Positions 3,165-55,694 are shown, numbered from the stretch's first letter. The stretch: DNA of 64,000 bases from Burkholderiaceae bacterium (GCA_965284495.1 OZ260105.1:260049-324048), one strand, 5' to 3'. The notes: generated by a model not told the origin, from the letters alone. Translations and numbers: made by a program.

Positions 3165-3214
3165 TGGCCTCTAGCGCTTACTGGTAAAGCGCTAGCAGCT
3201 ATGCTTTAAATAGC
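3165..3214 (+). repeat. Dispersed double-palindrome repeat (family A), reference copy
   Basis: TGGCCT-CTAGCGCTT-N7-AAGCGCTAG-CA-GCTAT-N7-ATAGC. Confidence 0.9.
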
Positions 3215-3299
3215 AAATGAACTCAATTCGACTCCACTCAATTCCATCCATTGGGCCCTCACCGAACAGCACGGAGCAGCACGGAGCACACCCGCGCCA

Positions 3300-4019
3300 T
3301 CACACCGTGAGGTAACGCGCCCACAGGCTGCGGTCAGCGTTCAGCGCGGCAGAGTCTCCTTGCCACACCACGCGCCCGCGTTCCAGGATCACATGGCGGT
3401 CGGCCAGGTCCACCAACCGGTGCACGTATTTGTCCACCACCAGAATGGTCTGCCCTGCGGCCTTGAGCATAGCCAAGCAGCGCCAGATTTCCTCGCGGAT
3501 CACAGGGGCCAGGCCTTCCGTGGCCTCGTCCAGGATGAGCAGGCGCGGGTTGGTGGACAGCGCGCGGCCAATGGCCAGCATCTGTTGCTCGCCACCCGAC
3601 AGCTGGTTGCCCAGGTTGTTTTGCCGCTCCTTCAGGCGCGGGAACAGGTTGTAGATGCGGTCAATGTCCCAGGCGTCACGCAGGCCGTTGCGGTTGTCTG
3701 CAAACGCTACCAGGTGCTCACGCACCGTGAGGTTGGGGAACACACGGCGCCCCTCGGGCACGATGGCCAGGCCCAGGCGGGCGATGGCGTCGCTTTGCAG
3801 CGCCCCGGTGGGCTGGCCTGCAAAACGAATCCCGCCCGCCGTGGGCCGCAGCGCACCCACCAGGGTCTTGATGGTGGTGCTTTTGCCCATGCCATTGCGG
3901 CCCAGCAGGGACACCACCTCGCCTGCGGCAATCTGCAGATCGATGCCAAACAGCACCTGGCTCACGCCATAGCCCGCCTCGACGGCCTGGCAACTCAACA
4001 GCGGCTCGGGCGCGGTCAT
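3300..4019 (-). CDS. Liv-type ABC transporter ATP-binding protein (LivF-like)
   Basis: Walker A GRNGMGKST, LSGGEQQMLA signature, LLILDE. Confidence 0.9.
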   Translation of the reverse strand: MTAPEPLLSCQAVEAGYGVSQVLFGIDLQIAAGEVVSLLGRNGMGKSTTIKTLVGALRPTAGGIRFAGQPTGALQSDAIARLGLAIVPEGRRVFPNLTVREHLVAFADNRNGLRDAWDIDRIYNLFPRLKERQNNLGNQLSGGEQQMLAIGRALSTNPRLLILDEATEGLAPVIREEIWRCLAMLKAAGQTILVVDKYVHRLVDLADRHVILERGRVVWQGDSAALNADRSLWARYLTV

Positions 4020-4774
4020 GCGGTGGTCTCCAGCGTTTCGGTGCCCAAGTACACGGCCTGCACCTCGGGGTGGTTGCGGATTTCATCGGGTGTGCCTGCT
4101 GTCAGCACACGGCCATACACCAGCACCGAGACGCGGTCGGCCAGGCGAAACACGGCCTCCATGTCGTGCTCGATCAGCAGCACGGCCATGTCCTTGCGCA
4201 GCGCCTCGATGAGCTGCACCATCTGCAGTGATTCGTCCGGCCCCATGCCCGCCATGGGCTCGTCCAGCAGCAGCAGTTTGGGGGCTGCGGCCAGGGCCAG
4301 CGCCACGTCCAGTGTGCGCTGCGCGCCATGCGGCAAAGCGCCCGCGGTCTCGTTCAGGCTGTGCTGCAGCCCCACCCGATCGGCCAGTTGCTCGGCCTTG
4401 GCGTACAGGTCACGCGCCTGCGCACGCGGCTGCACAAAGCGAAAGCTGGAGCCGCTGTGCGCCTGCACGGCCAGCAGCAGGTTGTCGCGCACGCTTTGCG
4501 CCGGGAAGATGCGCGTGACCTGAAAACAGCGCGACAGCCCGTGCGCCACGCGGCGGTGCATGGGCAGCGCGGTGATGTCCACGCCGTCCAGCACCACCCG
4601 CCCAGAGTCGGGCTTCAGCAGGCCCGATATCTGGTTGACCAGCGTCGTTTTTCCCGCCCCGTTGGGGCCAATCAGCGCGTGGATCTCGCCGCGCTCGACC
4701 GCCAGGCTGACGTGGTCGGTGGCCAGCAGGCCGCCAAAGCGCTTGACCAGGCCCTCGACTTGAAAGAGGCTCAT
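4016..4774 (-). CDS. Liv-type ABC transporter ATP-binding protein (LivG-like)
   Basis: True start MSLFQVEG (ATG 4774, overlapping livM stop); GPNGAGKTT, LLLLDEPMAGM, LIEHDM. Confidence 0.9.
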   Translation of the reverse strand: MSLFQVEGLVKRFGGLLATDHVSLAVERGEIHALIGPNGAGKTTLVNQISGLLKPDSGRVVLDGVDITALPMHRRVAHGLSRCFQVTRIFPAQSVRDNLLLAVQAHSGSSFRFVQPRAQARDLYAKAEQLADRVGLQHSLNETAGALPHGAQRTLDVALALAAAPKLLLLDEPMAGMGPDESLQMVQLIEALRKDMAVLLIEHDMEAVFRLADRVSVLVYGRVLTAGTPDEIRNHPEVQAVYLGTETLETTA

Positions 4775-5778: not shown

Positions 5779-5781
5779 CCG

Positions 5782-6702: not shown

Positions 6703-6805
6703 GAGGTGGCCGTCATGCGCAGATTAAGGTGCAGGTTAATTTCGGTATTCCAGTGCTCGATGCGCCGTCGTCGCTGTCCGTAAAAACTGGCGTTTCCCCG
6801 GCAAA

Positions 6806-6867
6806 GGGCCGCCCCGCCGCGCTGGCGGCGTCCCCCTCAGGGGGAAGGCGCGAAGCGCCTCAGGGGG
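6806..6867. repeat. GC-rich multi-hairpin REP-like element (family B)
   Basis: CGCCGC-GCTG-GCGGCG, CCCCCT-CA-GGGGG and GGCGC-GAA-GCGCC hairpins; CCTCAGGGGG occurs twice; a looser relative lies at ~13003-13026. Confidence 0.6.
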
Positions 6868-6870
6868 TTG

Positions 6871-10354: not shown

Positions 10355-10526
10355 GGGCTTGACCTCGTCGATTGGATTGCCTCCATGCTAGAAAAGACCG
10401 CCCTGCCGCGCTATCCAGTATCGGCACACCAGGTGCCACGCCTGTCCGGTTCTTGCAAATGTTCGGGTGCGCTGCCAAGGCATGCGGGCATGCGCATTTC
10501 GTGTGCGTCTTCATGCCCGCGCACGC

Positions 10527-10638
10527 ACAACCCAAAACCCGAAAAGCCAAAAACCCAAAAACCCAAAAACCCAAAAACCCACAACCCACAACCCAAAAAC
10601 CCGAAACCCAAAACCCGAAACCCAAAAAGCGAAAAAGC
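10527..10638. repeat. Degenerate 7-8-nt tandem repeat (A/C/G)AAA(A)CCC, 15 units
   Basis: Units acaaccc, aaaaccc, gaaaagcc, 4x aaaaaccc, 2x acaaccc, aaaaaccc, gaaaccc, aaaaccc, gaaaccc, aaaaagc, gaaaaagc. Confidence 0.95.
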
Positions 10639-10645
10639 AGAGGCC

Positions 10646-11668
10646 CTAACTACCCACCGTCTGGCTCGGCAATTCTCCAAAGCGCTCGCGGTAGTAGCTG
10701 GAGAACCGCCCCAGATGTCCAAACCCAAACTCCAGCGCAGCGTCGGTCACGCAGTGGCCTGGCCGTTCGCGCAGGCGCGCACGCACGGCATCCAGGCGCA
10801 TGTTGCGAAGCAAAGTCATGGGCGATTCGCCGTGGTAGCGCTGGCACAGCATGCTCAGGCCCCGCACGCTCACCCCGGCTGCGCGCGCCAGGTCGTCCAG
10901 CGCTACGGGCGCACACAGGCGGCTGCGCATGTAGGCATCCAGCTTGTCCAGGCGGCGCAGATCACCGCCCGCTGCGCTGCCCACCACTCGTTCGTCCTGT
11001 TCGTCGTTTGGGGCCTGTGCGGTCGGTATCGCAGCGACGCCCTGCGCACAAGAGGCCAGGAACAACGCCACATTGCTTTCCATATGGTCCACCCAGCGCG
11101 CGTGCGCGGTGCTCTCCACCGTCTGCTGGCTCACATGCAACAGCGACTGCATCAAGAAATGCCATTGCTGCCCCTGCACTGCAGACAGGGGAAGCAATGG
11201 CTGAGCAAAGGTGGTGTCGCCCACCAGCAATTGAGGCGCCCATGCGCGCAGCAACTGGCACGGCACTTTCAGGATGAGCTGGCGCGCACCCTGCTGCCAG
11301 CGCATGTGCAGGTTGTGCCGCGGCGCGATCAATGCCGCAGCGCCTGCGGGCAAGCGGATGGGCACGCCATCGGACACCATTTCAGCCACGCCCGACAGAG
11401 ACAGGTGCACCAGCACAAAGTCATCAAACGGGCGCGGGCGGATCTCGACCTCCGCACCGTATTGCAGCATGAACAACTGCAATTGGCGGATGCGCACCTT
11501 GGACAACGAGGTGTCCACCGCACCACTGCACCATTTCAGACCGTGGTCCGAAAACTCCCGGGCCACCAGGTCGTGCGAGTCCACCCGCACGTCCGACGTG
11601 AACACCGGCCGCCGTTGTAGCGCCGAAAGGTCCAGGGACAAGGAGGGCAAGGGAGCCATCAGAAACAA
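10646..11668 (-). CDS. andR: AraC/XylS family regulator (AndR-like)
   Basis: AraC_binding_2-type N-terminus; C-terminal double HTH (LARAAGVSVRGL; ALEFGFGHLGRFSSYYRERFGELPS); upstream of andAc. Confidence 0.75.
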   Translation of the reverse strand: MFLMAPLPSLSLDLSALQRRPVFTSDVRVDSHDLVAREFSDHGLKWCSGAVDTSLSKVRIRQLQLFMLQYGAEVEIRPRPFDDFVLVHLSLSGVAEMVSDGVPIRLPAGAAALIAPRHNLHMRWQQGARQLILKVPCQLLRAWAPQLLVGDTTFAQPLLPLSAVQGQQWHFLMQSLLHVSQQTVESTAHARWVDHMESNVALFLASCAQGVAAIPTAQAPNDEQDERVVGSAAGGDLRRLDKLDAYMRSRLCAPVALDDLARAAGVSVRGLSMLCQRYHGESPMTLLRNMRLDAVRARLRERPGHCVTDAALEFGFGHLGRFSSYYRERFGELPSQTVGS

Positions 11669-12874: not shown

Positions 12875-12913
12875 CTGCATTCGAACGACCTTGGGATGAA
12901 ATTTGAATGAAAT

Positions 12914-12960
12914 TGGCATCTAGCGCTTATGCAGCAAGCGCTGTTAGCTATTATTTTTGA
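12914..12960 (+). repeat. Family A repeat copy
   Basis: TGGCAT-CTAGCGCTT-N7-AAGCGCTGT-TA-GCTAT; shares the 5' extension ATTTGAATGAAAT with the 55645 copy. Confidence 0.85.
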
Positions 12961-13095
12961 CATTTCATCTGCAGGACATCTGTGTTTGAGAACGCCGCAG
13001 ACGCGGCATCAGCCCCGCCAGGGGGCATTGATAGGGCTCTGCCCCATCCCATGAGAAAATTGCTGGTTATTCCACCAAACACCCAGGACAAAATC

Positions 13096-14203: not shown

Positions 14204-14890
14204 ATGCAGATGCGGACGCGTACCGCCGCCATCATCTTCGACATGGACGGCACCATGATCGACTCCATGCCCTGGCATGCGCAGGCGTGGGTCGAATTTG
14301 CGCGCCGCCGGGGCATGAACATCGACGTGCCCGACCTGATGGCGCGCACCACGGGCCGCAACGGCACCGAGTGCATTGTCGAGTTGTTGGGCCGCGCCGT
14401 ATCGAGGGAGGAGGCCGACGCCCTCACGCACGAGAAAGAAACCATTTACCGCGAGCTGTTTGCCCCCCGCTTCGCCGAAGTGGCGGGCTTTCGCCAGTTT
14501 GCGGCGCAGGTGCATGGGCGCGGGCTGAAGGTGGCAGTGGGCACGGCGGGCGACATCGGCAACGTGGAGTTTGCGCTGGGCCACCTGGGCCTGGAACCTG
14601 CCCCGCTGGCGATCGTGCGCGGCGATGAAGGCTTACCGGGCAAACCGCAACCCGCCATTTTTCTCGAAGCTGCGCGCCGCATTGCCGCAGCGCCCGAACA
14701 CTGCATCGTTTTTGAAGACGCGCCGTTCGGCATCGAGGCCGCACGCCGCGCAGGCATGCGTGCCGTCGCCATCTGCAGCACCCACACGCCTGAGCAATTG
14801 GCCGGGCCACATGTGCTGGCCGCTGTGCGCGACTACACCGAACTCATGAACACCGACTTTCTGGAGAGCATCCATGTTGCAACTGCATAA
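14204..14890 (+). CDS. HAD family phosphatase (beta-PGM/CbbY-like)
   Basis: FDMDGT motif I, GKPQP, FEDAPFG. Confidence 0.85.
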   Translation: MQMRTRTAAIIFDMDGTMIDSMPWHAQAWVEFARRRGMNIDVPDLMARTTGRNGTECIVELLGRAVSREEADALTHEKETIYRELFAPRFAEVAGFRQFAAQVHGRGLKVAVGTAGDIGNVEFALGHLGLEPAPLAIVRGDEGLPGKPQPAIFLEAARRIAAAPEHCIVFEDAPFGIEAARRAGMRAVAICSTHTPEQLAGPHVLAAVRDYTELMNTDFLESIHVATA

Positions 14891-17645
14891 CGCAGACGGA
14901 AGCGGAGACAGCGCCGGCCCAGCCGCCGCCATCCGCCGCGAGGACTACACCGCCCCCGCCTACTGGATCGACAGTGTCGAGCTGACCTTCGACCTGGACC
15001 CCAACAAGACCCGCGTGCTCAACCGCATGACGCTGCGCCGCAACCCCGACGTGGCCGCGCAGCCGCTCAAACTGGACGGTGACGACCTGAACCTGGCGCG
15101 TGTGCTGGTCAACGGCCAGGGCACCTCGTTCAAGATGGAAGGCTCGCGCCTGGTGCTGGAGAACTTGCCGACTATTGAAGAGAACGGCGCCGAGCCCTTC
15201 GCGCTGGAAATTTTTACCACCTGCTGCCCCGCCAAAAACACACAGCTGATGGGGCTGTACGTGAGCCAGGGCACGTTTTTCACGCAGTGCGAGGCCGAGG
15301 GCTTTCGCCGCATCACATACTTTCTGGACCGCCCTGATGTGATGGCCAGCTACACCGTCACGCTGCGCGCAGACAAGGCCCAGTACCCGGTGCTGCTTTC
15401 CAACGGCAATCTGGTGGACAGCGGCGCGCTGGAAGACGGCCCCAATGGAGCCAGGCATTTCGCCAAGTGGGTCGATCCGCACAAAAAGCCGTGCTACCTG
15501 TTCGCCCTGGTGGCAGGCAAGCTGGTGGCACGCGAACAGAAGATCAAAAGCCGATCGGGGACCGACCACCTGCTGCAGGTGTACGTGCGCCCCGGCGACC
15601 TGGGCAAGACCGAACACGCGATGAACTCGCTGATGTACAGCGTGGCGTGGGATGAAGCCCGTTTTGGCCTGCCGCTGGACCTGGAGCGCTTCATGATCGT
15701 CGCGACCAGCGACTTCAACATGGGCGCCATGGAGAACAAGGGGCTGAACATCTTCAACACGAAGTACGTTCTGGCCAGCGAGTCCACCGCCACCGACACC
15801 GACTTTGGCAACATCGAAAGCGTGGTCGGCCACGAGTACTTTCACAACTGGACGGGCAACCGCGTCACCTGCCGCGACTGGTTCCAGTTGAGCCTGAAGG
15901 AAGGCCTCACGGTGTTCCGCGATCAGGAGTTCAGCATGGACCTGGCGGGCAGCCCGTCGGCCCGCGCCGTCAAGCGCATCGAAGACGTGCGCGTTCTGCG
16001 CACTGCACAGTTCCCCGAAGACGCAGGCCCCATGGCCCACCCGGTGCGGCCGGACAGCTATGTCGAGATCAACAACTTCTACACCGTCACCATCTACGAA
16101 AAGGGTGCCGAGGTAGTGCGCATGCAGCACAACCTGGTGGGCCGCGACGGTTTTGCCAAGGGTATGAAGCTGTACTTCGAGCGCCACGACGGCCAAGCCG
16201 TGACCTGCGACGATTTTGTTCAAGCCATCGCAGATGCGAATCCAGGCAGCCCGCTCACGCAGCACCTTGCACAGTTCAAGCGGTGGTACAGCCAGGCCGG
16301 CACGCCCCGCGTGCGAGCCTCAGGCCACTATGACGCAGCTACCCGCTGCTATGCCCTCACGTTGTCGCAAAGTTGCGCAGCAACGCCCGGCCAGAGCGAC
16401 AAGCTGCCTTTTGTCATCCCCGTGGAACTGGGCTTGGTCGACGCCAGCACCGGAGCCGCCCTGCCCTTGCACCTTGCAGGAGAAGACGCGGCGATAGAAA
16501 CCACATCGCGCGTTGTGGTGCTCACAGAAGCGTCGCAGACGCTGACCTTCACCAACCTGGATGCCGAGCCGGTGCCTTCTGTGCTGCGCGGCTTCAGTGC
16601 CCCCGTGGTGCTGGACATCGAGTACACCGACGCCCAGTTGCTCACGCTGCTGGCGCACGACACAGACGCTTTCAACCGCTGGGAGGCAGGGCAGCGTCTG
16701 GCGCTCCGAACCGCTATCAATGTAATAGCTAATAGCGCACAGGGGACAAGCGCTAGCGGCCGTTTTGAACATGAAATTCTGCCTGCAGAGCTTGTCGCCG
16801 CCATGCGCGCCGTGCTGCGCAACCCCGCGCTGGATTCGGCCTACAAAGAGCTGGTGCTCACCCTGCCGTCTGAAACCTACATTGCCGAGCAACTCGACGT
16901 GGTGGACCCACAGCGCATTCACGCCGTGCGCGAGGCCATGCGCGAAGAGCTGGCGCTGTCGCTGCAGGCCGACTGGGAATGGGCCTGGGACCAAAACCAG
17001 GACACCGGTGGCTACAGCCCCGACCCCGTGTCTTCAGGTCGCCGCGCGCTCAGCGGTCTGGCACTGCACATGCTGTGCATTGCCGCGCAGAAGACAGGCG
17101 ATGAGGTCTGGCCCGGGAAGGCGTATCAACGCTTCAAGGTGGCCAGCAACATGACCGACCGCTTCAACGCCCTGACGGCCCTCGTGGCCAGCGGCAGCGA
17201 GCTGGCGGCACCCGCGCTCGCTCGTTTCCACGCCCTGTTCAAGGACGAACCCCTGGTCATCGACAAGTGGTTTGCGCTACAGGCTGGCGCGCCAGACCAT
17301 GGCGGCAACGTGCTGCCCGCCGTACGCCAGCTCATGGCGCACCCGGACTTCAGCCTCAAGAACCCCAACCGCGCACGCAGCGTGATCTTCAGCTACTGCA
17401 GCGCCAACCCCGGTGCGTTCCACCGGTCGGATGCAGCGGGTTACGCGTACTGGAGCGACCGAGTGATCGAGCTGGACGCCATCAACCCCCAAGTCGCTGC
17501 ACGCCTTGCACGCGCGCTGGACCGCTGGAAGAAGCTGGCCGAACCCTGGCGCACCTCCGCGCGCGAAGCGATTACCCGCGTGGCCGCCAAGCCCACCCTC
17601 TCGAACGACGTGCGCGAGGTTGTGACCCGCGCGCTGGCTGATTAA
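14874..17645 (+). CDS. pepN: Aminopeptidase N (M1)
   Basis: GAMENK, HEYFH...E zinc motif, C-terminal NPNR.RS and NPQVAARL. Confidence 0.97.
16713..16778 (-). repeat. Family A repeat copy inside the pepN coding frame
   Basis: GCTAT-N7-ATAGC-TAATAGCGCA-N7-AAGCGCTAGCGGCC on + strand; encodes [22 protein letters not shown] with AT-rich codons. Confidence 0.85.
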
Positions 17646-18687: not shown

Positions 18688-18763
18688 GCCGGTGTAGCTC
18701 AGTCGGTAGAGCAGCTCATTCGTAATGAGAAGGTCGGGTGTTCGATTCATCTCTCCGGCACCA
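18688..18763 (+). tRNA. tRNA-Thr(CGT)
   Basis: 76-nt cloverleaf; anticodon arm GCTCA-TT-CGT-AA-TGAGA; TTCGA T-loop; CCA end; TATAAT at 18672-18677 upstream. Confidence 0.97.
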
Positions 18764-18774
18764 AATCAGCAAAG

Positions 18775-18808
18775 GAAACCCCGCTATCTAAAACGTAGCG
18801 GGGTTTTT
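18775..18808 (+). terminator. Intrinsic terminator downstream of tRNA-Thr (element-borne)
   Basis: AAACCCCGCTA-loop-TAGCGGGGTTTTT. Confidence 0.8.
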
Positions 18809-18822
18809 CTATTGGTGTTGCT

Positions 18823-18841
18823 TGTAGGCAATCTGTAGGCA
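18823..18841 (+). repeat. Putative integrase arm-type sites, left
   Basis: TGTAGGCAATCTGTAGGCA (TGTAGGCA twice, 11-bp period), identical to 25449-25467. Confidence 0.8.
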
Positions 18842-18905
18842 AACGGGCGAAATCTGCTGGGACTGAACGTGCGTTGAAGACGACACCAAAGACCAGCACG
18901 CCACG

Positions 18906-19172
18906 TCATCGATGGCGACTTTCATAGCTTCCGTCTGAGTTTTTCTTCAAGCAGGCCCACGAGAATGCCTGCCCAGAGTTGCGCGCGTTGATGCTGTTGA
19001 ACTCTGCTATGGCTGCAGTACGGCATTCATCGAGTGATGAGAAGTCACCCGAGACGTGCCACTTCTCCGCGCCTCCTTCTCGCCAGCCAATCTCGGCGGC
19101 ATATTTGCCCCCGAATTCGCATCCGGCGAGCAGCGCATAAGCGGCGCAGAGGAATATAGCCTTTCTCCTCAT
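18906..19172 (-). CDS. Small lipoprotein of unknown function (88 aa)
   Basis: MRRK...LLAG-C lipobox; ATG overlaps the upstream stop (ATGA). Confidence 0.7.
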   Translation of the reverse strand: MRRKAIFLCAAYALLAGCEFGGKYAAEIGWREGGAEKWHVSGDFSSLDECRTAAIAEFNSINARNSGQAFSWACLKKNSDGSYESRHR

Positions 19173-30190: not shown

Positions 30191-30210
30191 AGGAAACTTC
30201 TTTGGCGTTA

Positions 30211-30255
30211 GCTCTTAAAAATATAGCTGGCTGCGCTTTTCAGTAAACGTTTTCA
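30211..30255 (-). repeat. Family A repeat copy (degenerate)
   Basis: GCTCT-N7-ATAGC-TGG-CTGCGCTT-N7-AACGTTTT on + strand. Confidence 0.65.
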
Positions 30256-30286
30256 ATATCAAATAGCATTGAAATCCAATGAAATA

Positions 30287-30310
30287 AAGCGCTAGCAGCT
30301 CACTTTTTTG
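30287..30310 (+). repeat. Family A half copy
   Basis: AAGCGCTAGCAGCT. Confidence 0.65.
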
Positions 30311-31365: not shown

Positions 31366-31402
31366 ATCGACTCTTGAAAATGAACAAGGGCTAGTGCCTT
31401 TT

Positions 31403-31452
31403 CAAGCTCTAGCCCTTGTTGTTATTGCGCAAGAAGCTATCCAAAAGATAGC
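31403..31452 (+). repeat. Family A repeat copy; its left arm also forms a 12-bp hairpin with 31383-31394
   Basis: CTAGCCCTT-N7-TTGCGCAAG-AA-GCTAT-N7-ATAGC; AACAAGGGCTAG/CTAGCCCTTGTT. Confidence 0.75.
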
Positions 31453-31466
31453 TTCTCATCGTGAAC

Positions 31467-32839: not shown

Positions 32840-32862
32840 GGCTATCTTCCTTCAATCAAATT

Positions 32863-32915
32863 ACTACAAACTTTGTAGCTACAACCGCACAGCTGGCAAG
32901 CGCCAAAGCAAGTTT
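32863..32915 (-). repeat. Family A repeat copy (degenerate) between thrS and infC
   Basis: ACTAC-N7-GTAGC-TAC-AACCGCAC-N7-AAGCGCCAA on + strand. Confidence 0.65.
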
Positions 32916-32925
32916 TCAACAAAAA

Positions 32926-37221: not shown

Positions 37222-38178
37222 GTGAAACCGCCGAACCGTCTCTTCGCCTATGCGTGCCTCGCGCTCAGCATGTCACTCGTGGGCTGCTACGTAGCGCTTT
37301 CCAAGCCGCTGGCGGCAGTGCTACCCGTGTTTCTGCTGGCGTGGATGCGTTTTGGCATTGGCGGGCTGGCCATGCTCCATTGGCTAAAAAAGCCGATAGA
37401 CGAACCACCCCTCACGCCGCAAACCAAACGCTTGCTGTTTCTGGAATCGTTTCTGGGCAACTTTCTGTTCACCATCTGCATGATCTATGGCGTGAGCCTG
37501 ACCGATGCCGTCTCGGCCGGTGTGACCATGGCATCGATCCCGGCAGCAGTTGCCTTGATGGGCTGGGCGTTTCTGGGCGAGCGGGTGGCGCCGCGCACGT
37601 GGGCTGCCGTGGTGTGCGCTGTAGGGGGAGTTGCCTTGTTCTCACTATCAAAACCAGAGCACACTGCGCATGCTGCACAAGCGCTAGGTGCCAAAAACAC
37701 TCAAAACATGGCATGGCTCGGTCAGTTGCTGCTGGTAGGGGCCGTGATCTGCGAAGCGGCCTATACCGTAATCGGCAAGAAGCTCACGGGAAGCCTGGGG
37801 CCCAAACGCATCACCTCGCTCATCAACCTGTGGGGGTTTGCGCTGACAACGCCTTTTGGGCTGTACCTGGCGCTGGATTTTGACTTTGCCGCGGTCGGCT
37901 GGGGCACCTGGATGCTGCTGCTTTTCTATGCCATGGCGGCCTGCATGTGGACGGTCTGGCTGTGGATGACAGGGCTCAAGGCCGTTCCGGCAGCCCAAGG
38001 TGGGGTTTTCTCGGTCATGTTGCCCGTAAGCGCGGCGCTGGTAGGCGTGCTGCTACTGGGCGAATCCCTCACCGCCATGCAACTGGTGGCGTTTGCCATC
38101 GCCCTGGCCAGCGTGTTGCTGGCCACCCTGCCCTCACGCGCTGCGATGCGTGTGGGCCGAAAGAACCGGGCGGGCTGA
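37222..38178 (+). CDS. EamA/DMT family transporter
   Basis: ~10 TM helices in two repeats; WMRFGIG, EAAYTVIGKKL. Confidence 0.85.
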   Translation: MKPPNRLFAYACLALSMSLVGCYVALSKPLAAVLPVFLLAWMRFGIGGLAMLHWLKKPIDEPPLTPQTKRLLFLESFLGNFLFTICMIYGVSLTDAVSAGVTMASIPAAVALMGWAFLGERVAPRTWAAVVCAVGGVALFSLSKPEHTAHAAQALGAKNTQNMAWLGQLLLVGAVICEAAYTVIGKKLTGSLGPKRITSLINLWGFALTTPFGLYLALDFDFAAVGWGTWMLLLFYAMAACMWTVWLWMTGLKAVPAAQGGVFSVMLPVSAALVGVLLLGESLTAMQLVAFAIALASVLLATLPSRAAMRVGRKNRAG

Positions 38179-41980: not shown

Positions 41981-42036
41981 GATGTATTGATGCGTTGATG
42001 CGTTGATGCGTTGATGCGTTGATGCGTTGATGTTCT
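41981..42036. repeat. 8-nt tandem repeat GATGCGTT x5 plus 2 degenerate units
   Basis: Perfect units at 41989-42028, starting just after the receptor stop codon. Confidence 0.95.
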
Positions 42037-42776: not shown

Positions 42777-42811
42777 GATGGCACACCGGCCACACCATTC
42801 GCTCATTTTTC

Positions 42812-42856
42812 AATAGCACCTCGCGCTTACCAAATAAGCGCCAGCTGCTATTTTGC
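42812..42856 (-). repeat. Family A variant copy abutting the next start codon
   Basis: ATAGCACCTCGCGCTT-N7-AAGCGCCAGCTGCTAT. Confidence 0.7.
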
Positions 42857-42860
42857 TTGT

Positions 42861-44009
42861 ATGACCCACACTCCCGCGCGGCAAAAACTACCGTCCAACA
42901 TCGCTACCCTGGCCGACCACGAGTTGCAGGCGCGCCAGCATCTGGACGACAACGCCTGGGCCTACTTCAGCGGCGGTGCTGGCGACGAGATCACCCTGCG
43001 CGCCAACCGCAGCGCCTGGGATGCCCTTCCCCTGTGGCCCCGTGTGCTGCGGCCGTTGGCGGGCGGCCATACCCGGGTGGACCTGCTGGGCCGCACGCTG
43101 GCGCATCCCATTCTGCTGGCGCCCGTCGCTTTTCAGCGCCTGGCCCATCCCGACGGCGAACTGGCCATGGCATACGCTGCCGCCGCTCTGGGCGCGGGCA
43201 TTGTGCTCAGCACCCAGGCCAGCGTGTCGCTGGAGGCGGTTGCCCAAGCGGTGCAGCCCGACCCGGGCCGTGGCCCGTTGTGGTTTCAGCTGTACCTGCA
43301 GCACGACCGCGGCTTTACCCAGGCACTGGTGCAGCGCGCCGAATCCGCCGGTTACGAGGCCCTGGTGCTCACCGTGGACGCCCCCACCAGCGGCGTGCGC
43401 GACCGCGAAAGGCGCGCCGGGTTCAGGCTGCCGCCCGGTATCGGTCCCGTCAACCTTGTTGGCCTGCCAACGCCGCCATCGCCCCCATCACCCCCCTTGC
43501 AACCCAGCCAGAGCGCCCTGTTTGACGGGCTGCTGCGGCATGCCCCGACCTGGGACGACATTGCCTGGCTGCAGTCCATCACACGGTTGCCAGTGCTGCT
43601 CAAGGGCGTGATGCATCCGGGCGACGCGCGCCAGGGGGTGTCTTTGGGTGTCGCCGGCCTTATCGTTTCCAACCACGGCGGCCGTACGCTGGATACCAGC
43701 CCCAGCACCGCCAGCGCGCTGCCGCGTGTGGCAGATGCTGTGGCGGGTGCAGTGCCCGTGCTGGTCGACGGCGGCATCCGCCGTGGCACCGACGTGCTCA
43801 AGGCCATGGCGCTCGGCGCGTCGGCCGTGCTGGTGGGGCGGCCTGCGGTGTGGGGCCTGGCCAATGCGGGCGCAGCTGGCGTAGCGAATGTGCTGCGCCT
43901 TCTACGCGACGAGCTGGAAATCGCCATGGCGCTCACGGGTTGCGCCACGCTGGCCGATGCGTCACCCGCGCTGCTGGACCTTGAGGCAGCGCGCGGCCAG
44001 CGGTGGTGA
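42861..44009 (+). CDS. FMN-dependent alpha-hydroxy acid oxidase/dehydrogenase
   Basis: WFQLY, LTVD, LKGV, SNHGGRTLD, DGGIRRGTDVLKA.ALGA. Confidence 0.92.
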   Translation: MTHTPARQKLPSNIATLADHELQARQHLDDNAWAYFSGGAGDEITLRANRSAWDALPLWPRVLRPLAGGHTRVDLLGRTLAHPILLAPVAFQRLAHPDGELAMAYAAAALGAGIVLSTQASVSLEAVAQAVQPDPGRGPLWFQLYLQHDRGFTQALVQRAESAGYEALVLTVDAPTSGVRDRERRAGFRLPPGIGPVNLVGLPTPPSPPSPPLQPSQSALFDGLLRHAPTWDDIAWLQSITRLPVLLKGVMHPGDARQGVSLGVAGLIVSNHGGRTLDTSPSTASALPRVADAVAGAVPVLVDGGIRRGTDVLKAMALGASAVLVGRPAVWGLANAGAAGVANVLRLLRDELEIAMALTGCATLADASPALLDLEAARGQRW

Positions 44010-44049: not shown

Positions 44050-44079
44050 TTGCAAATGCGATGGATTCGTATTTATAAT
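44050..44079 (+). promoter_or_regulatory. bfd promoter with overlapping Fur-like box
   Basis: TTGCAA-N18-TATAAT; AATGCGATGGATTCGTATT at 44055-44073. Confidence 0.65.
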
Positions 44080-44120
44080 GAACCTCATTCCTTCAACAGC
44101 CAGCCACACTGCCTGCCGCC

Positions 44121-44393
44121 ATGATCGTCTGCGTTTGCCGCCGGATTTCTGACCGTGAGATTGCACGCCATGCCCGCGCTGGCATGAGCTTTGACGAAAT
44201 CCAGTTTGAACTGGGCGTGGCCACCCAATGCGGGTGCTGCGAAAGCTGCGCCCGCGACGTGGTCGCGCAGTGCAGTGCATCGCGCCCGGTGGCCGCCCTG
44301 CGCAACGAGGCCGCACCGCAAACGATCCAGCTTGCCAGCTCCATTTTGGAAAGCAAGTCATGGAACTCCTCTCTACACTCGCAGGCAGCCTGA
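44121..44393 (+). CDS. bfd: Bacterioferritin-associated ferredoxin
   Basis: MIVCVC...CGCC [2Fe-2S] ligands. Confidence 0.9.
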   Translation: MIVCVCRRISDREIARHARAGMSFDEIQFELGVATQCGCCESCARDVVAQCSASRPVAALRNEAAPQTIQLASSILESKSWNSSLHSQAA

Positions 44394-44446
44394 TCCTCGT
44401 CGCAGGCTCGGCCTGGTGGATCTTCCGCAAATAATTAAGGTCTTTT

Positions 44447-44496
44447 TGGCCTCTAGCGCTTATTTCATAAGCGCTAGCAGCTATCATTTTTATGTC
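44447..44496 (+). repeat. Family A repeat copy overlapping the tonB start
   Basis: TGGCCT-CTAGCGCTT-N7-AAGCGCTAG-CA-GCTAT-N7-ATGTC. Confidence 0.9.
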
Positions 44497-45181
44497 TCAG
44501 CCTGATCGTTTCGCGTCCCCCGGGGGCGTCAGTCGCAATGCCGTGATCGTGGGCTCTGTGGTGGCATTGCACGTGGCTGGCATCTGGGCCTTGCAGTCCG
44601 GTCTGCTGCGCAAAGCCGCCGAAGTCATCGTGCCTGCCGAGCTGTTGAGCGAATTCATCGCCCCGCCAGCCCCCCCCAAGGTCACCCCCCCACCGCCAGC
44701 GCCACCCCCACCGCCCAAGCCAGCGCCCAAAGTAGCGCCGCGCCCGGCCCCGATGCCCGTGGCCATCACCGACCCGACACCTGCGCCCAATGCCCCCACC
44801 GGCATCACCACGCCGCAGCCGCCTGCGCCGCCCATCGAGGCCCCGGCAGCGCCTCCAGCTCCGGCCCCTGCACCACCAGCCCCACCCGCGCCGCCGCGGA
44901 TCGAGCTGCCGTCCAGCGACGCTGCCTATCTGAACAACCCCAAGCCCGGCTACCCCGCCATCAGCAAACGCATGGGCGAGCAGGGCAAAGTGGTGCTACG
45001 TGTGCTGATTGGCACCGACGGCTTGCCGCAAAAGGTAGAAATCAGCAAGTCCAGCGGTTTTGACCGGCTGGACCGCCAGGCGCAGGAGGCGGTCATGCGC
45101 TGGCGCTTCGTGGCCGGCAAACGCAATGGCGTGCCTGAGACCATGTGGAACCTGGTCCCTGTCAACTTTGTTCTCGAATAA
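44492..45181 (+). CDS. tonB: TonB energy transducer
   Basis: N-terminal TM, Pro-rich linker, PGYP...GEQGKV.LRV..SSGF.RLD. Confidence 0.92.
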   Translation: MSQPDRFASPGGVSRNAVIVGSVVALHVAGIWALQSGLLRKAAEVIVPAELLSEFIAPPAPPKVTPPPPAPPPPPKPAPKVAPRPAPMPVAITDPTPAPNAPTGITTPQPPAPPIEAPAAPPAPAPAPPAPPAPPRIELPSSDAAYLNNPKPGYPAISKRMGEQGKVVLRVLIGTDGLPQKVEISKSSGFDRLDRQAQEAVMRWRFVAGKRNGVPETMWNLVPVNFVLE

Positions 45182-47090: not shown

Positions 47091-47120
47091 TTTGTTGCGC
47101 CCAAGAACTTCAAGCCATTT

Positions 47121-47170
47121 TGGCCTCTAGCGCTTGATGAGCAAGCGCTAGCAGCTATCAGTTCAATAGT
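47121..47170 (+). repeat. Family A repeat copy
   Basis: TGGCCT-CTAGCGCTT-N7-AAGCGCTAG-CA-GCTAT-N7-ATAGT. Confidence 0.9.
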
Positions 47171-47194
47171 AGCCGCTTGTGTAAGCTGCCCAGC

Positions 47195-49262: not shown

Positions 49263-50723
49263 TCAGACCCGGTCAAATACCGCCATGCTCTCCACGTGGG
49301 CGGTGTGCGGGAACATGTTCACCATGCCTGCCGCCGTGCACTGGTAGCCTGCTGAATGCACGAGCAGCCCTGCATCACGGGCCAGCGTGGCGGGGTTGCA
49401 GCTCACGTAAACGATGCGCTTGGGCGGCGTCCAGCCCTCGGCGCCAGCGGGCGACGGGCCTGCACCTTCCGCCCCGATGCGGGCCTGCTCCAAATCGGCC
49501 AGCGCCTGAACGAGCGCGAAGGCACCTTCGCGCGGTGGGTCCACCAGCCACTTGTCGGCCGACCCATCGGCCACCAGCATCTCAGGGGTCATCTCAAACA
49601 AATTACGCGCTACAAAATCAGTAGCTGCTAGCGCTTTATGGCCCTGCGCTACAGCCTGATTCAACGCATAGTTTTCGCGTGAACGGACCACCAGGGCTTC
49701 GCTGCCCTCAATGCCCAGCACCTCGCGCGCCTGGGTCGCCAGCGGCAAGGTGAAATTGCCCAGGCCGCAGAACCAGTCGATCACGCGCTCGTCGGCCTTT
49801 ACATCCAGCAAACGCAGCGCACGCGAGACCAGCACACGGTTGATGTGCGGGTTCACCTGCGTGAAGTCGGTGGGCTTGAACGGCATGGTGATGCCGAAAT
49901 CGGGCAAGGCATACGACAAGGTTTCGCCGCCTTCGTCCAGCAGCTTTACGGTATCCGGTCCTTTGGGCTGTAGCCACCATTGCGCGTTGTGCTCTGCGGC
50001 AAAGGCGCGCAACTGGGCGATGTCGTCCGCGCTCAGGGGTTCTAGGTGGCGCAGCACCAGCGCAGTCACTGTGTCGCCGCAGGCCAGTTCGATCTGCGGA
50101 CAGGTGTCACGTGCGTCCATGCCGGCAATCAGCGCCCGCAGGGGCATCAGCATGGCGTCGACATGGGGCGGCAGCACAGGGCACTGCTGCATGTCGGCCA
50201 CATAGCGGCTTTTGCGCTCATGAAAACCTACCAGCACCTGGCCTTTTTTGATCACATGGCGTACCGACAGGCGGGCGCGGTAGCGGTAGCCCCAGGCTGG
50301 CCCTTCGATGGGGCGCAGCATGGTCTGGGCCTTGACCTTGCCCAGGTGCCAGAGGTTGTCTTCCAGCACCCGCTGCTTGACGGCTACCTGGGCGCCCACA
50401 TGCAGATGCTGCATCTTGCAGCCGCCACACGCACCCGCGTGCAAGCCAAAGTGCGGGCAACCCGGGCGCACGCGCTGCGACGATTCACGGTGAATCGCGA
50501 GCAGGCTGGCCTGCTCCCAGTTGTTCTTTTTGCGGTGGGTGTTGGCGGTGACCAGCTCAAACGGCAGGGCGCCGTCGATAAAAATGACCTTGCCGTCCGG
50601 CTTGCGGGCGACGCCTTGGGCGTCCAAATCCATGGACTGCACCTGCAGCCAGCCCTCGGGCAGGTCCGAGGCTTCCTGTGCGGTGGGTTCAAACGAGGGG
50701 GATAGTTCTTTGGGTGCGCTCAT
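49263..50723 (-). CDS. rlmD: 23S rRNA (U1939)-methyltransferase
   Basis: CPHF...CGGC.MQH 4Fe-4S cluster, [36 protein letters not shown]. Confidence 0.92.
49609..49663 (-). repeat. Family A repeat copy inside the rlmD coding frame
   Basis: - strand CTGTAGCGCAG-N7-AAGCGCTAG-CA-GCTAC-N7-GTAGC; encodes [18 protein letters not shown]. Confidence 0.85.
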
Positions 50724-50782
50724 CCCCCGATTGTCTCAGGCCCGGGACCGCATCGACCCGGGGCTGGACGGCATCCGAAGGA

Positions 50783-51663: not shown

Positions 51664-51789
51664 TTTGAATAGTCATTAGTTCGGCGCCACCTGCAATTTT
51701 CGAACATTTATTCAGCGTCAGTCCAAGGATCATTGGCAACAACGCGCCAAACAAGCTTTTGGCCCACAAATCCACCGAAAGACACCGCC

Positions 51790-54700
51790 ATGACGCAGCC
51801 CACCGCCCTGCCCTCTGCTCCGTTCGCCGACTTTGCCCCCCGCACGCCGCTCGCAAGCCCGCTGCGCACTGCCATCACCGCAGCCACCCGCCGCCCCGAG
51901 CCAGAGGCACTGGCCCCGCTGCTGGCACAGGCGCGCCTGCCACAAGAACACGCCGCATCGGCCGAGCAACTGGCCCTGCGCATTGCCAAGGCGCTGCGCG
52001 AACGCAAGGCAAGCTCTGGGCGCGCGGGCATCGTGCAGGGCCTTCTGCAAGAGTTCTCGCTGTCGTCGCAAGAAGGCGTGGCGCTGATGTGCCTGGCTGA
52101 GGCGCTGCTGCGCATCCCCGACAAGGCCACGCGTGACGCGCTGATCCGCGACAAAATCAGCCACGGCCAGTGGGATGCCCACCTGGGCAAGAGCCCGTCG
52201 CTCTTCGTCAACGCTGCCACCTGGGGCCTGCTGATCACCGGCAAGCTGGTGGCCACGCACAGCGAAGGCAACCTGGGTAACTCGCTGGGGCGCCTGATCG
52301 GCAGGGGCGGCGAGCCCCTGATCCGCAAAGGCGTGGACATGGCCATGCGCATGATGGGCGAGCAGTTTGTGACTGGCGAGACCATTGACGAAGCCCTGCG
52401 CAACGCCCGCACCGTGGAGGCCGAGGGCTTTCGCTATTCGTACGACATGCTGGGCGAGGCCGCGCTGACCAGCGCGGATGCGCAGCGCTACTACCAGTCC
52501 TACGAGAAGGCCATCCATGCGATTGGCAAGGCCTCTGCCGGGCGCGGCATTTACGAAGGGCCGGGCATCTCCATCAAGCTCTCGGCCTTGCACCCCCGCT
52601 ACAGCCGTGCACAGTTCGGCCGCGTGATGGACGGGCTGTACCCGCTGGTGTTGCGCCTGACCGCGCTGGCCAAGCAGTACGACATTGGCCTGAACATCGA
52701 CGCCGAAGAAGCCGACCGGCTGGAGCTGTCGCTGGACCTGCTCGAGCGCCTGTGCCATGAGCCCACCCTGGCGGGCTGGAACGGCATTGGCTTTGTGATC
52801 CAGGCCTATCAAAAGCGCTGCCCCTTCGTCATCGACTACGTGGTGGACCTGGCCCGCCGCAGCCAGCGCCGCCTGATGGTGCGCCTGGTCAAGGGCGCCT
52901 ATTGGGACAGCGAAATCAAGCGCGCCCAGGTCGATGGCATGGAAGACTACCCCGTGTACACCCGCAAGGTGCACACCGACATTTCGTACATCGCCTGCGC
53001 AAAGAAGCTGCTGGCCGCGCCCGAGGCCGTGTACCCCCAGTTCGCCACGCACAACGCCGAAACCCTGGCCACCATCTACCAAATGGCCGGCAGCAACTAC
53101 TACCCCGGCCAGTACGAGTTCCAGTGCCTGCACGGCATGGGCGAGCCCTTGTACGAGCAAGTGGTGGGCGCTATCACTGCCGGCAAGCTCGGCCGCCCGT
53201 GCCGTATCTACGCCCCCGTGGGCACGCACGAAACCCTGCTGGCCTACCTGGTGCGCCGCCTGCTGGAGAACGGTGCCAACACCTCGTTCGTGAACCGCAT
53301 TGCCGACGAGACCATTGCGCTGGACGAGTTGGTGAAAAGCCCCGTGCAGGTGGTGGACCAACAAACCGCGGTGCAGGGCACCGCTGGCATGCCTCACCCA
53401 CGCATCCCACTGCCAGCGGCGCTGTATGGTGCCCACCGCGCCAATTCACGCGGGCTGGACCTGTCGAACGAAAACACGCTGACTGAACTGACAGCCGCCC
53501 TGCAAGCCACGGCCACCGATGCCTGGACAGCGGCTCCCCTGATGGGCACCGATGCGCCCGCAGGCCCTACCCAGCCCGTGCGCAACCCGGCCGACCACAG
53601 CGATGTGGTGGGCAACGTACAAGAGGCCACCACCGCCGACGTGGACCAGGCCCTGGCCCACGCCCAGGCCGCCGCAGCCCCCTGGGCCGCTACGCCACCT
53701 GCCGAGCGTGCCGCCGCCCTGTTGCGCACTGCCGACCTGCTGGAAGCCCGCATGCAACCCCTGCTGGGCCTGCTGATGCGCGAAGCCGGCAAAAGCGCCA
53801 GCAACGCCGTGGCCGAGGTGCGCGAAGCCGTGGATTTTCTGCGCTACTACGCGGCCCAGGTGCAAAGCACCTTCGACAACGCCACCCACATCCCGCTGGG
53901 CCCGGTGGCCTGCATCAGCCCCTGGAACTTCCCGCTCGCCATCTTCATGGGCCAGGTAGCAGCGGCGCTGGCCGCAGGCAACCCCGTGCTGGCCAAGCCC
54001 GCTGAGCAAACCCCGCTGATCGCCGCCGAGGCCGTGCGCCTGCTGTGGGAGGCCGGTGTGCCCCGCGCCGCCGTGCAACTGCTGCCCGGCCAGGGCGAAA
54101 CCGTGGGTGCCCGCCTGATTGGCGACGCCCGCGTGATGGGCGTGATGTTCACCGGCTCTACCGAAGTGGCGCGCATCCTGCAGCGCATCTTGGCCGGGCG
54201 GCTGGATGCAGCAGGCCGCCCCATCCCGCTGATTGCCGAGACCGGTGGACAGAACGCGATGATCGTGGACTCGTCCGCCCTGGTCGAGCAGGTGGTGGGC
54301 GACGCCGTGTCGTCGGCCTTCGACAGCGCAGGCCAGCGCTGCTCTGCCCTGCGCGTGCTGTGCGTGCAAAGCGACGCTGCCGATCGCGTGGTCGAGATGC
54401 TGCAAGGCGCCATGGGCGAGCTGCGTGTGGGCAACCCCGGCGCGCTGCGCGTGGATGTGGGCCCGGTGATCGATGCCGAAGCGCAGGCGGGCATCACCCA
54501 ACACATCGAGACATTAAGGCCAAGGGCCATCGCGTGTTCCAGCACCCTAACCATGTCTCGGCTGCCAGCGCAGAGGGCACCTTTGTGCCCCCCACGCTGA
54601 TCGAGCTGAATCACATCGGCGAGCTGCAGCGCGAGGTCTTCGGCCCCGTGCTGCACCTGGTGCGCTACGCCCGCAACGACCTGGACCAGTTGCTCGACCA

Positions 54701-55547
54701 GATCAACGACACCGGCTACGGCCTGACGCAGGGCGTGCACACCCGCATCGACGAAACCATTGCCCGTGTGGTGAACCGCGCCCACGCAGGCAACGTGTAC
54801 GTGAACCGCAACATGGTGGGCGCCGTGGTCGGCGTGCAGCCGTTTGGGGGTGAAGGTCTGTCGGGCACTGGTCCCAAGGCGGGTGGGCCGCTGTACCTGC
54901 TGCGCCTGTTGTCGGAACGCCCGGCCGATGCGCTGGCGCGCACCTTTGCTGACGCCGACCGCACCACGCCCCCCGAGGACACACAGCGCGACCGCCTTCT
55001 GGCACCGCTCGCCACCCTGCAGCAATGGGCGCAGAGCCAAGGCAATGCAACACTGACCAGCACCTGCCAGCGCTTTGCCCAGCAAACCCAGAGCGGCACC
55101 GCCCGCACCCTGCCCGGCCCCACCGGCGAGCGCAACGTCTACACCCTGGCCCCGCGCGCCCGCGTGCTGTGCGTCACCCAGAACACGGACGAGTTGCTGA
55201 CGCAAACCGCCGCCGTGCTCGCCACCGGCGGCACAGCACTGTGGCCCAGTACCCAAGCGAGTCTGCGTGCCAAGCTGCCCACCCCGGTGCAGGCCCAGAT
55301 CGCACTGCACGACAACGCACTGGACGACGGCTCTTTAGCACTGGACGCAGTGCTTCACCATGGCGACGCCACATCGCTGCAGACCGTGTGCGCCACCCTC
55401 GCCCGGCGCGCCGGGCCCATCGTCGGCGTGACAGCGCTGCCGTCAGGCGCCGTCGATGTCCCGCTGGAACGCCTGCTGATCGAGCGAGCATTGAGCGTGA
55501 ACACAGCGGCCGCGGGGGGCAACGCCAGCTTGATGACGATTGGATGA
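51790..55547 (+). pseudogene. putA: Bifunctional proline dehydrogenase/P5C dehydrogenase with an apparent 1-nt deletion at ~54514-54516
   Basis: PRODH motifs (RLVKGAYWD, FATHN) and ALDH motifs (ETGGQN, GQRCSALR) in frame 1; EVFGPVLH, QPFGG and the C-terminal domain continue in the -1 frame after ACA TT|AAG GCC. Confidence 0.85.
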
Positions 55548-55644
55548 GTGCCGCGGTACCGGACGAACCTGTTCGCGATTCGCAGCCTCTGGCAGGTCGT
55601 CAACACGTTCTAAGGTCGCCAACCTCTGAAAATTTGAATGAAAT

Positions 55645-55694
55645 TGGCCTCTAGCGCTTATTGGTAAAGCGCTAGCAGCTATCCATTCAATAGC
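55645..55694 (+). repeat. Family A repeat copy
   Basis: TGGCCT-CTAGCGCTT-N7-AAGCGCTAG-CA-GCTAT-N7-ATAGC. Confidence 0.92.

Follow-up and report, generated by a model that had tools for sequence, protein, structure and literature searches.

A REP-type palindromic element of Comamonadaceae, apparently undescribed, and a candidate RAYT-like partner

Results

A palindromic element recurs along a 64-kb stretch

The stretch analysed here, hereafter the window, comprises 64,000 nucleotides of a Burkholderiaceae bacterium (GCA_965284495.1, OZ260105.1:260049-324048), and carries, in and between genes that include prfB, pepN, pheS, tonB and putA, a short dispersed element whose core is a hairpin with the arms CTAGCGCTT and AAGCGCTAG; its nature, age and possible partner enzyme are the subject of this analysis. 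The window is ~92% identical to two Acidovorax-type metagenome-assembled genomes and its aminopeptidase N (PepN) is 92% identical to the best Acidovorax matches; judged by sequence, it is from an Acidovorax species.

The original prediction described an abundant double palindrome of ~50 bp, with two fixed 7-nt spacers, at a series of positions in the window. Scanning for CTAGCGCTT-N7-AAGCGCTAG with up to three mismatches returned eight matches, where dinucleotide shuffles gave an expectation of 0.02, and a covariance model trained on 58 imperfect copies from elsewhere, with four window copies among the training set, detected 12 loci (E<0.01); counting the half copy at 30287, there are thirteen. 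The motif was confirmed at all twelve of the predicted positions, three of which (30211, 31403 and 32863) carry it as decayed relics. The predicted number of ~12 copies also held, as did the half copy, which retains the right arm only; a minus-strand copy at 37640-37711 had been missed. Perfect or near-perfect cores lie on the plus strand at 3147, 12896, 44429, 47103 and 55627, minus-strand copies start at 16709, 37640, 42797 and 49605, and relics at 30207, 31385 and 32859. Together with the half copy, these are:

3147 to 3218, plus strand: full copy with a perfect core, CTAGCGCTT-ACTGGTA-AAGCGCTAG-CAGCTAT-GCTTTAA-ATAGC (72.9 bits, E=1e-20), between an aldo-keto reductase start (2939, minus strand) and an ABC ATPase stop (3300, minus strand), antisense to both.
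12896 to 12967, plus strand: full copy with two mismatches in the right arm (62.6 bits), 22 nt past an alpha/beta-hydrolase stop (12874) and upstream of prfB.
16709 to 16780, minus strand: in-frame copy in pepN (14874-17645), residues 612-633 (56.3 bits).
30207 to 30254, minus strand: decayed relic in the pheT-pheS spacer, of which hairpin 2 and the left arm remain (E=0.0056).
30262 to 30310, plus strand: half copy that has lost its left arm and loop, so that the A/T-rich left flank directly adjoins AAGCGCTAGCAGCT, the right arm (nhmmer E=0.0069).
31385 to 31456, plus strand: decayed copy in the pheS-rplT spacer, CTAGCCCTT-GTTGTTA-TTGCGCAAG-AAGCTAT-CCAAAAG-ATAGC (25.6 bits, E=7e-6).
32859 to 32930, minus strand: decayed copy in the infC-thrS spacer (23.1 bits, E=4e-5).
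37640 to 37711, minus strand: partial copy within the gene of an EamA-family transporter (37222-38178), falling in the linker that follows the first EamA repeat (38.3 bits, E=7e-10).
42797 to 42868, minus strand: degenerate copy between a PKHD-type hydroxylase stop (42776) and an FMN-dependent dehydrogenase start (42861) (45.3 bits).
44429 to 44500, plus strand: perfect-core copy in the bfd - small open reading frame (ORF) - tonB - exbB - exbD cluster, intercistronic, from 4 nt past the small-ORF stop to the tonB ATG (44492) (60.8 bits).
47103 to 47174, plus strand: perfect-core copy between convergent hemP (stop 46898) and an HbpS-like gene (stop 47195) (71.8 bits).
49605 to 49676, minus strand: in-frame copy in rlmD/rumA (49263-50723, minus strand), residues 350-371 (56.4 bits).
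55627 to 55698, plus strand: the best copy of the window, with perfect core and hairpin 2 (81.1 bits, E=3e-23), between convergent putA and DUF6352 genes, its end 2 nt from the stop of the latter (55698).

Loci collected from other genomes, here denoted L plus a number, hold copies at several of the same sites: the tonB-site copy has orthologues in L081, L011 and L006, the 47103 copy has a perfect orthologue in L081, and the pheT-pheS spacer of L116 also contains partial copies.

The element is a tagged hairpin of ~68 bp

From 123 exact-core copies we derived the consensus AAAWTTTnAGTCAAATTGGCCT, CTAGCGCTT, ATCCATC, AAGCGCTAG, CAGCTAT-N7-RKAGY, in which an A/T-rich left flank precedes TGGCCT. 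The corresponding position matrix is conserved from about -22 to +46 around the first arm, giving an element of ~68 bp, longer than had been proposed. The predicted AT-richness in a GC-rich genome was borne out, with 35-50% G+C in the copies against 62% in the window. The stem is perfect over 9 bp, grows to 12-15 bp when mismatches are allowed, and closes a loop of 7 nt.

One genome per species was then scanned with exact arms and a first spacer left free at 3-12 nt: of 121 matches, 119 had a spacer of 7 nt, as predicted, and two had one of 6 nt. For the second hairpin the prediction stood only in part; its AGY block is conserved at a fixed distance, but only 45 of 125 copies have a complete GCTAY-N7-RTAGY hairpin (2 have an N8 version). 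Nor does the spacer sequence vary freely, as had been supposed, since loop 1 resembles ATCCATC in 36 of 107 oriented copies and its reverse complement, GATGGAT, in another 14. The compensatory change thought to link the arms was likewise not recovered: for the 58 imperfect copies, the percentage of paired positions, the number of double changes and the score for covariation equalled the shuffled expectation under both a two-hairpin and an extended 15-bp stem model, and covariation sought in an outer helix between the left flank and loop 2 was not found. The copies look like independent decay products of a palindromic master sequence. We found no population of solo hairpin-2 units, nearly all hairpin-2 matches adjoining a core.

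Within the alignment of the 58 imperfect copies (A1), conservation is strongest in the GCGC cores and in AGCT (columns 51-54), which is invariant and exceeds the outer stem pairs. Read on the opposite strand, the unit runs RTAGCT(G), stem, 7-nt loop, stem, (AGG)CCA, where the consensus CCA tail (the left TGGCC on the other strand) is conserved, position by position, in 59-89% of copies. The RTAG tag stands 3 nt off the perfect stem, is able to pair with the opposite flank, and doubles as an arm of hairpin 2, a weak second hairpin that overlaps it. Taken as a whole, the element is a long imperfect palindrome, AAATTG..GCYK-CTAGCGCTT / AAGCGCTAG-MRGC..CAATTT, made asymmetric by the one-sided AGCTAT tag.

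As a separate observation, CTAG is strongly depleted across the window, with 39 occurrences against 221 expected from base composition; 11 of the 39 lie within copies of the element.

Copy number and taxonomic range

To estimate copy number, a single 70-nt copy was matched to contigs of the organism's own sequencing run and depths were summed. The 167 matching contigs total a depth of ~24,000, compared to ~92 for single-copy contigs, which suggests ~260 copies per genome, in keeping with the hundreds extrapolated from the density in the window. Collection scans returned at least 113 and at least 120 loci, and among the matches listed all named ones are Comamonadaceae: Acidovorax, Paenacidovorax, Simplicispira, Giesbergeria, Extensimonas, Comamonas, Polaromonas, Rhodoferax/Albidiferax and Verminephrobacter. 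Only 3 of 72,556 plasmids carry the element, all three from Comamonadaceae.

Comparison with catalogued families gave no match. Rfam returned nothing for the window at gathering thresholds, and nothing relevant for a single copy at E<=10; a full-text literature search with 12-15-mers of the element retrieved cloning primers only; and the main catalogue of repetitive extragenic palindromic (REP) sequences (PMC3733652) has no Acidovorax or Comamonas entry and lists Polaromonas under an unrelated CGTC type only. The element is apparently an undescribed REP-type family of Comamonadaceae.

Copies lie 3' of genes and are transcribed

Gene context was assigned to 189 copies with our own gene caller, based on G+C content at third codon positions (GC3). 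Intergenic copies (115 in total) comprise 39 between convergent genes, 74 between tandem genes and only 2 between divergent genes, where ~24 would be expected from the intergenic bp of the same loci (binomial p ~1e-9), and the median distance from the facing stop codon to the copy is 17 nt. Called ORFs contain 21 of the 189 copies, about a dozen of which were verified against Pfam or solved structures. GTAG and CGTC REPs show the same pattern of context, and several REP families include intragenic copies (PMC3733652). There is no strand preference, the tandem copies dividing into 32 sense and 42 antisense, and the link between orientation and local GC skew is weak (p=0.04, Mann-Whitney; p=0.11, Fisher). 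A nucleoid-organising role, one of the functions originally suggested, is not supported, given this weak link, the confinement of copies to 3' intergenic DNA and their near absence from plasmids.

Predicted RNA folds reach -21 to -27 kcal/mol on both strands (z -2.5 to -4.8), with -24 to -26 kcal/mol for the 55627 copy on either strand. In the metatranscriptome of a relative, contigs extend without a break from bfd into exbB, crossing the element and tonB on the way, with added depth over the element from other loci; as these are assembled contigs, DNA carry-over is possible. Copies are transcribed, in 3' untranslated regions or between cistrons, and their hairpins are predicted to be stable in either orientation. 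The consensus has no U-tract after the stem, reading CAGCTATCAATTT on one strand and AGGCCAATTTGA on the other, and the copies are therefore not classical intrinsic terminators, in agreement with the original view that the element is no simple terminator.

These data bear on the idea that the element acts purely as RNA, as a bidirectional terminator, 3'-end protector or intercistronic processing site spread by recombination or duplication and having no dedicated mobility. Its position close to stop codons, its avoidance of divergent promoter regions, its transcription within operon RNA and its strong folds on both strands are all consistent with this, as is the G-U-compatible variation seen in the plus reading (pair 52-68, 37 GC and 16 GU; pair 56-64, 25 UA and 21 UG; pair 20-54, 39 GU and 11 AU). 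We nevertheless regard it as improbable, since U-tract, Rfam match and covariation are all missing, sense and antisense copies are about equally frequent, and ~260 near-identical 68-bp units with conserved unpaired flanks need a copying mechanism.

The same placement, with a 9-mer in inverted pairs inside A/T-rich flanks 3' of genes, recalls the inverted pairs of DNA uptake sequences (DUS) or uptake signal sequences (USS) found downstream of Neisseria and Haemophilus genes. Uptake signals are mostly singletons, at ~1 per kb. In the window, by contrast, the 9-mer never occurs outside the element, all 13 occurrences lying within copies, which contradicts this reading and leaves it barely credible.

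Some copies lie in frame within housekeeping genes

Three real genes of the window contain in-frame copies: pepN, rlmD/rumA and the EamA transporter gene, the last in the linker between repeats. RlmD has 8 residues more than E. coli RumA at the position of the element, and its copy is kept in L081. Elsewhere, Pfam architectures place copies in tex, earP (twice), anmK and an ECH_2 hydrolase gene, and further intragenic sites fall in linkers (a biotin carboxylase, FdhA-like and NuoF-like proteins) and, in GspD, in the signal-peptide region. The encoded peptides recur, as IAASAYPSSASGQ.D in the antisense frame and as LASSA..SASSYQ and ALA..GQALAAIK in two open sense frames, the third frame being closed on each strand because of two CTAGs. 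The element peptide of PepN is present in most Acidovorax orthologues, one clade being 7 residues shorter there, whilst the ECH_2 segment has a constant length in all 120 closest homologues.

In Acidovorax defluvii (L096, 3283-3347) the signal peptide of the secretin GspD appears to have a hydrophobic core encoded by a copy of the element (FALNAIAACALLASASGQIHAQ).

A syntenic Y1 gene is a candidate RAYT-like partner

The original prediction named as one candidate a REP spread by a REP-associated tyrosine transposase (RAYT). E. coli RayT matched nothing in the first 0.92 Mb of flanking DNA searched, but this negative misleads, since identity between the Comamonadaceae protein and E. coli RayT is only 23%. 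That protein came from a weak match, a Y1_Tnp gene on an element-bearing contig of a metagenome sample, which scores 50 bits in Pfam, 75.7 bits on the NCBIfam model REP_Tyr_transpos (NF047646, cut-off 80) and 17 bits on the IS200 model. Its homologues have lengths of 229-236 aa and share 66-89% identity with the query, and the source-named ones are all Comamonadaceae (Acidovorax, Alicycliphilus, Ramlibacter, Rhodoferax and Giesbergeria); they reach 75-84 bits on the RAYT model, with 2 of 7 above the cut-off, and at most 22 bits on the IS200 model. In an alignment with E. coli RayT, the HUH and YxxxNP motifs match up. The gene order aroB-dGTPase-DUF1415-methyltransferase-Y1-gltB is kept in Acidovorax, Giesbergeria and Rhodoferax; such single-copy vertical inheritance is the behaviour that separates RAYTs from insertion-sequence transposases.

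Directly 3' of the Y1 stop, the covariance model detects a copy of the element in Rhodoferax (E=2.7e-12), Acidovorax (E=1.2e-6) and Giesbergeria (E=1.3e-5), the copy after the stop in A. carolinensis being weak (E=0.08), and Giesbergeria has a second copy just upstream of Y1. A RAYT gene flanked by copies had been proposed as a thing to look for; the candidate gene has a copy on the 3' side in three genera and on both sides in one, and the hairpin that brackets it is another. No RAYT was found on any Comamonadaceae plasmid.

The conserved bracketing hairpin, AATTGG(GG)TCAGA/AATCTGA(CC)CCAATT, lies at ~3930-4000 and 4800-4880 in L238, L240, L242 and L243 and at 2760-2790 and 3690-3720 in L152. 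With 3 matches in 1.9 Mb it is not high-copy, and it may mark the ends of an ancestral mobile unit.

A second Y1 family was considered as a partner and rejected, as it has inverted repeats of its own and is not adjacent to the element. Its representative (L218, 3080-4159, minus strand) is a 359-aa Y1/RAYT-like protein with a C-terminal helix-turn-helix resembling sigma-70 region 4, and the gene lies between inverted repeats of its own (GGCAAAAGGCAAGACCTGACCC), with a perfect copy of the element ~700 bp off.

The element compared with known REP systems

Taken together, these results lead us to favour, with moderate confidence, a REP-type family specific to Comamonadaceae that has a candidate RAYT partner and is mostly ancient and vertically inherited. 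The RAYT-spread REP of the original prediction is favoured by the RTAG-stem-loop-CCA layout, the invariant AGCT, the REP-like context and the RAYT-like gene with an abutting copy; inverted dimers, the other feature of such systems, are rare (~3 of 190). We propose that the hairpin would form in single-stranded DNA, where hairpin and tag together would be acted on by a RAYT-type domesticated HUH/Y1 transposase. The candidate enzyme would be the product of the single-copy syntenic 230-aa Y1 gene between the methyltransferase gene and gltB, and may have seeded copies into non-essential DNA just 3' of genes. There, by analogy with E. coli and Pseudomonas REPs, the hairpins might buffer mRNA 3' ends or modulate read-through.

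The closest parallels are the GTAG-type REPs, namely E. coli REP and bacterial interspersed mosaic elements (BIMEs) with RayT, Pseudomonas GTAG-1 and Stenotrophomonas SMAG. As in these, a putative RTAG tag stands 5' of a stem-loop with an imperfect foot and a CCA tail follows; hundreds of copies lie 3' of convergent or tandem genes; sequence is conserved at the family level; and a single-copy syntenic Y1 transposase gene, here a candidate partner, has a neighbouring copy. Unlike in GTAG REPs, the stem is of unrelated, CTAG-rich sequence with a loop fixed at 7 nt, the tag is set off from the perfect stem by three mismatch-prone pairs, conserved A/T-rich flanks and a second mini-hairpin extend the unit to ~68 bp, and copies are nearly all singletons rather than inverted doublets, whilst the candidate enzyme is distant from E. 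coli RayT, sits at the family cut-off and is bracketed by a different hairpin.

Among the CGTC-type REPs (Di Nocera et al. 2013) is the catalogue's one entry from Comamonadaceae, Polaromonas naphthalenivorans (PMC3733652). These REPs share with the element 8-9 bp stems, the CCA tail, a REP-like context, intragenic copies in some species and the lack of a known dedicated transposase, but the element has no CGTC tag, its loop is 7 nt instead of 4-5 nt, and its stem does not start with A-T pairs. Rickettsia palindromic elements (RPEs) are also found in frame in housekeeping genes, encode a recurrent peptide and persist in orthologues; they differ in length (~100-150 bp), in their unrelated sequence, in their alphaproteobacterial parasite host and in the share of intragenic copies, about half for RPE-1 against ~10% here. 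This resemblance is functional, not genealogical. Neisseria Correia elements and bacterial transposable elements of the miniature inverted-repeat type (MITEs) are similarly short, abundant, intergenic, co-transcribed with their neighbours and of long inverted symmetry, but the present element has no detectable target-site duplication and its termini resemble no known insertion sequence.

Orthologous sites point to old, vertically inherited copies

Several findings weigh against a transposase-spread REP. When the flanks of every copy were mapped onto all other loci, 25 orthologous comparisons were obtained, and essentially all of them, cross-genus pairs included, are filled on both sides, with orientation differing in none; no virgin empty site and no recent insertion was seen among them. 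The sole exception is L011 at the window 42797 site, where L006 has a perfect copy; with the outer A/T flank still there, it looks like a deletion of the core. The intragenic copies are ancient. Copies are singletons, only ~3 of 190 having a partner within 200 bp, unlike REPINs (REP doublets forming hairpins) and BIMEs, the inverted doublets that typify RAYT systems. As for the enzyme, the copy abutting Y1 represents one orthologous locus, and ~6% of genes are expected to have a downstream copy by chance. A different low-copy hairpin, AATTGGGGTCAGACCCCAATT, brackets the Y1 gene together with the abutting copy, and could be the true substrate of the enzyme. The Y1 candidate is known from loci of relatives rather than from the window's own genome, its activity on element DNA is wholly inferred, and no counterpart of the Thauera RAYT was reported in other betaproteobacteria (Nunvar et al. 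2010).

Metagenome contigs of close relatives likewise yielded no clean presence/absence joint, and the synteny break between L041 and the window gave no further filled/empty comparison. The filled and empty orthologous sites that had been envisaged as a check are thus essentially all filled. Most copies are old, vertically inherited and slowly decaying, and some are fixed in frame in proteins. A recombinase-type site with inverted arms around a 7-bp core, the alternative first raised for the element, is not supported: no recombinase association was seen, the hairpins are single, and none of the 25 orthologous pairs differs in orientation.

Across 24 orthologous pairs, identity is 0.92-0.94 in the stems and 0.94 in CAGCTAT, compared to 0.57 in loop 1 and 0.55-0.60 outside the element; the stem figures are inflated because the loci were chosen for perfect stems. 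This pattern favours the main rival, in which a conserved Comamonadaceae protein binds the palindrome as duplex, cruciform or RNA hairpin and purifying selection maintains the sites. Candidates for the binder would include nucleoid proteins, topoisomerases and factors that bind or process RNA; dispersal would be ancient and the Y1 gene irrelevant. In cross-genus orthologues such as Comamonas kerstersii L070 and Simplicispira L080, or A. facilis L018 and Paenacidovorax L100, stems and CAGCTAY are identical at 25 of 25 positions whilst loops and outer flanks are only ~50% identical; sequence rather than pairing is conserved, spacer length is fixed and recent insertions are not seen. Against this stands first the ascertainment of loci, which weakens the cross-genus stem identity. 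The hydrolase-prfB site (12896), the only orthologous site sampled without bias, was compared between the window and three other Acidovorax species, reached via pepN, and each lineage has decayed differently there. Many window copies are relics or halves, the half-site centres are 16 bp apart, a poor fit to a simple dimer, and the restriction to 3' intergenic DNA in either orientation resembles tolerated insertions more than placed sites. We consider a host-maintained site unlikely, though it is the strongest competitor of the REP-type reading.

Also weighed was a MITE moved by a DDE insertion-sequence transposase, with arms and flanks as terminal inverted repeats. The whole element is indeed a long imperfect palindrome, and MITEs have been reported from Polaromonas (PMC10969869). 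Flanking direct repeats did not exceed shuffled pairings (best z=2.9 over ~380 register tests), however, so that no target-site duplication is signalled; the association with T-tracts is weak (p=0.03), 1.9 Mb of flanking DNA showed no related insertion sequence, and the AGCTAT tag on one side only makes the element asymmetric. We judge this origin very improbable.

A bolder possibility, which we put forward tentatively, is that the family is genome punctuation kept by selection and not, or no longer, selfish, in which a conserved Comamonadaceae protein reads the CTAGCGCTT-N7-AAGCGCTAG hairpin and AGCT at ~260 gene ends, and the sequence has repeatedly been co-opted as an insert of ~21 residues in housekeeping proteins. 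The recognising protein would possibly be the domesticated Y1 enzyme, acting as a binding or nicking factor and not as a transposase. Such a role would explain why stems are perfect across genera, why the loop is fixed in length but free in sequence, and why recent insertions are lacking.

As an observation in its own right, the tonB-site copies of the window (44453-44477) and L011 (2758-2819) are identical at all 57 non-loop positions and differ at all 7 loop positions (ATTTCAT versus GCCCAGC). This suggests that the loop was replaced as a unit, by conversion between copies or by re-insertion.

REP-RAYT systems have been worked out almost wholly in Gammaproteobacteria. If the REP-type reading is true, a Comamonadaceae-wide REP with a syntenic RAYT-like gene extends the model of vertical repeats and domesticated transposases to a large environmental and plant-associated lineage, and the sharply defined tag-plus-hairpin, single copies and one candidate enzyme would make a clean test system. 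Should copies be conserved in place, this bears on whether REPs are parasites or host tools. The family also accounts for an AT-rich, CTAG-rich feature that recurs, interrupts assemblies and misleads gene callers, ORFs being able to traverse it in 4 of 6 frames; it marks lineage-specific inserts of ~21 residues in PepN, RlmD, Tex, EarP and other proteins; and it is a family-specific marker whose orthologous copies are usable for typing.

Other features of the window

Next to the tonB-site copy, the small ORF between bfd and tonB (44355-44428) encodes MELLSTLAGSLILVAGSAWWIFRK and is conserved in three related genomes, and a Fur-box-like sequence lies upstream of bfd, near 44070-44100.

The putA gene beside the 55627 copy has a broken frame (51733-55547): the ORF 51733-54600 ends within the aldehyde dehydrogenase domain, and the frame is taken up again by 54045-55547. 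An extra C after 54515 is present in contigs of relatives from four metagenome runs, and in three of these runs all contigs have it. The window's putA is therefore frameshifted by 1 nt, which would be due to either an error of sequencing or a pseudogene.

An island of ~6.9 kb (18688-25647) is integrated at tRNA-Thr(CGT), bounded by a perfect 51-nt direct repeat (18716-18766 = 25597-25647) and with a G+C content below that of its surroundings. It contains a tyrosine integrase (24118-25431, minus strand), a Mob_Pre-like relaxase (20942-22111, minus strand) and an int-alpA RNA (23412-23477, minus strand).

Finally, the window has a pair of 8-nt tandem-repeat arrays, at 10507-10650 and 41981-42036. 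One consists of CCCAAAAM-like units upstream of an AraC-type regulator gene, and the other of seven units of GATGCGTT directly past the stop of a TonB-dependent receptor gene.

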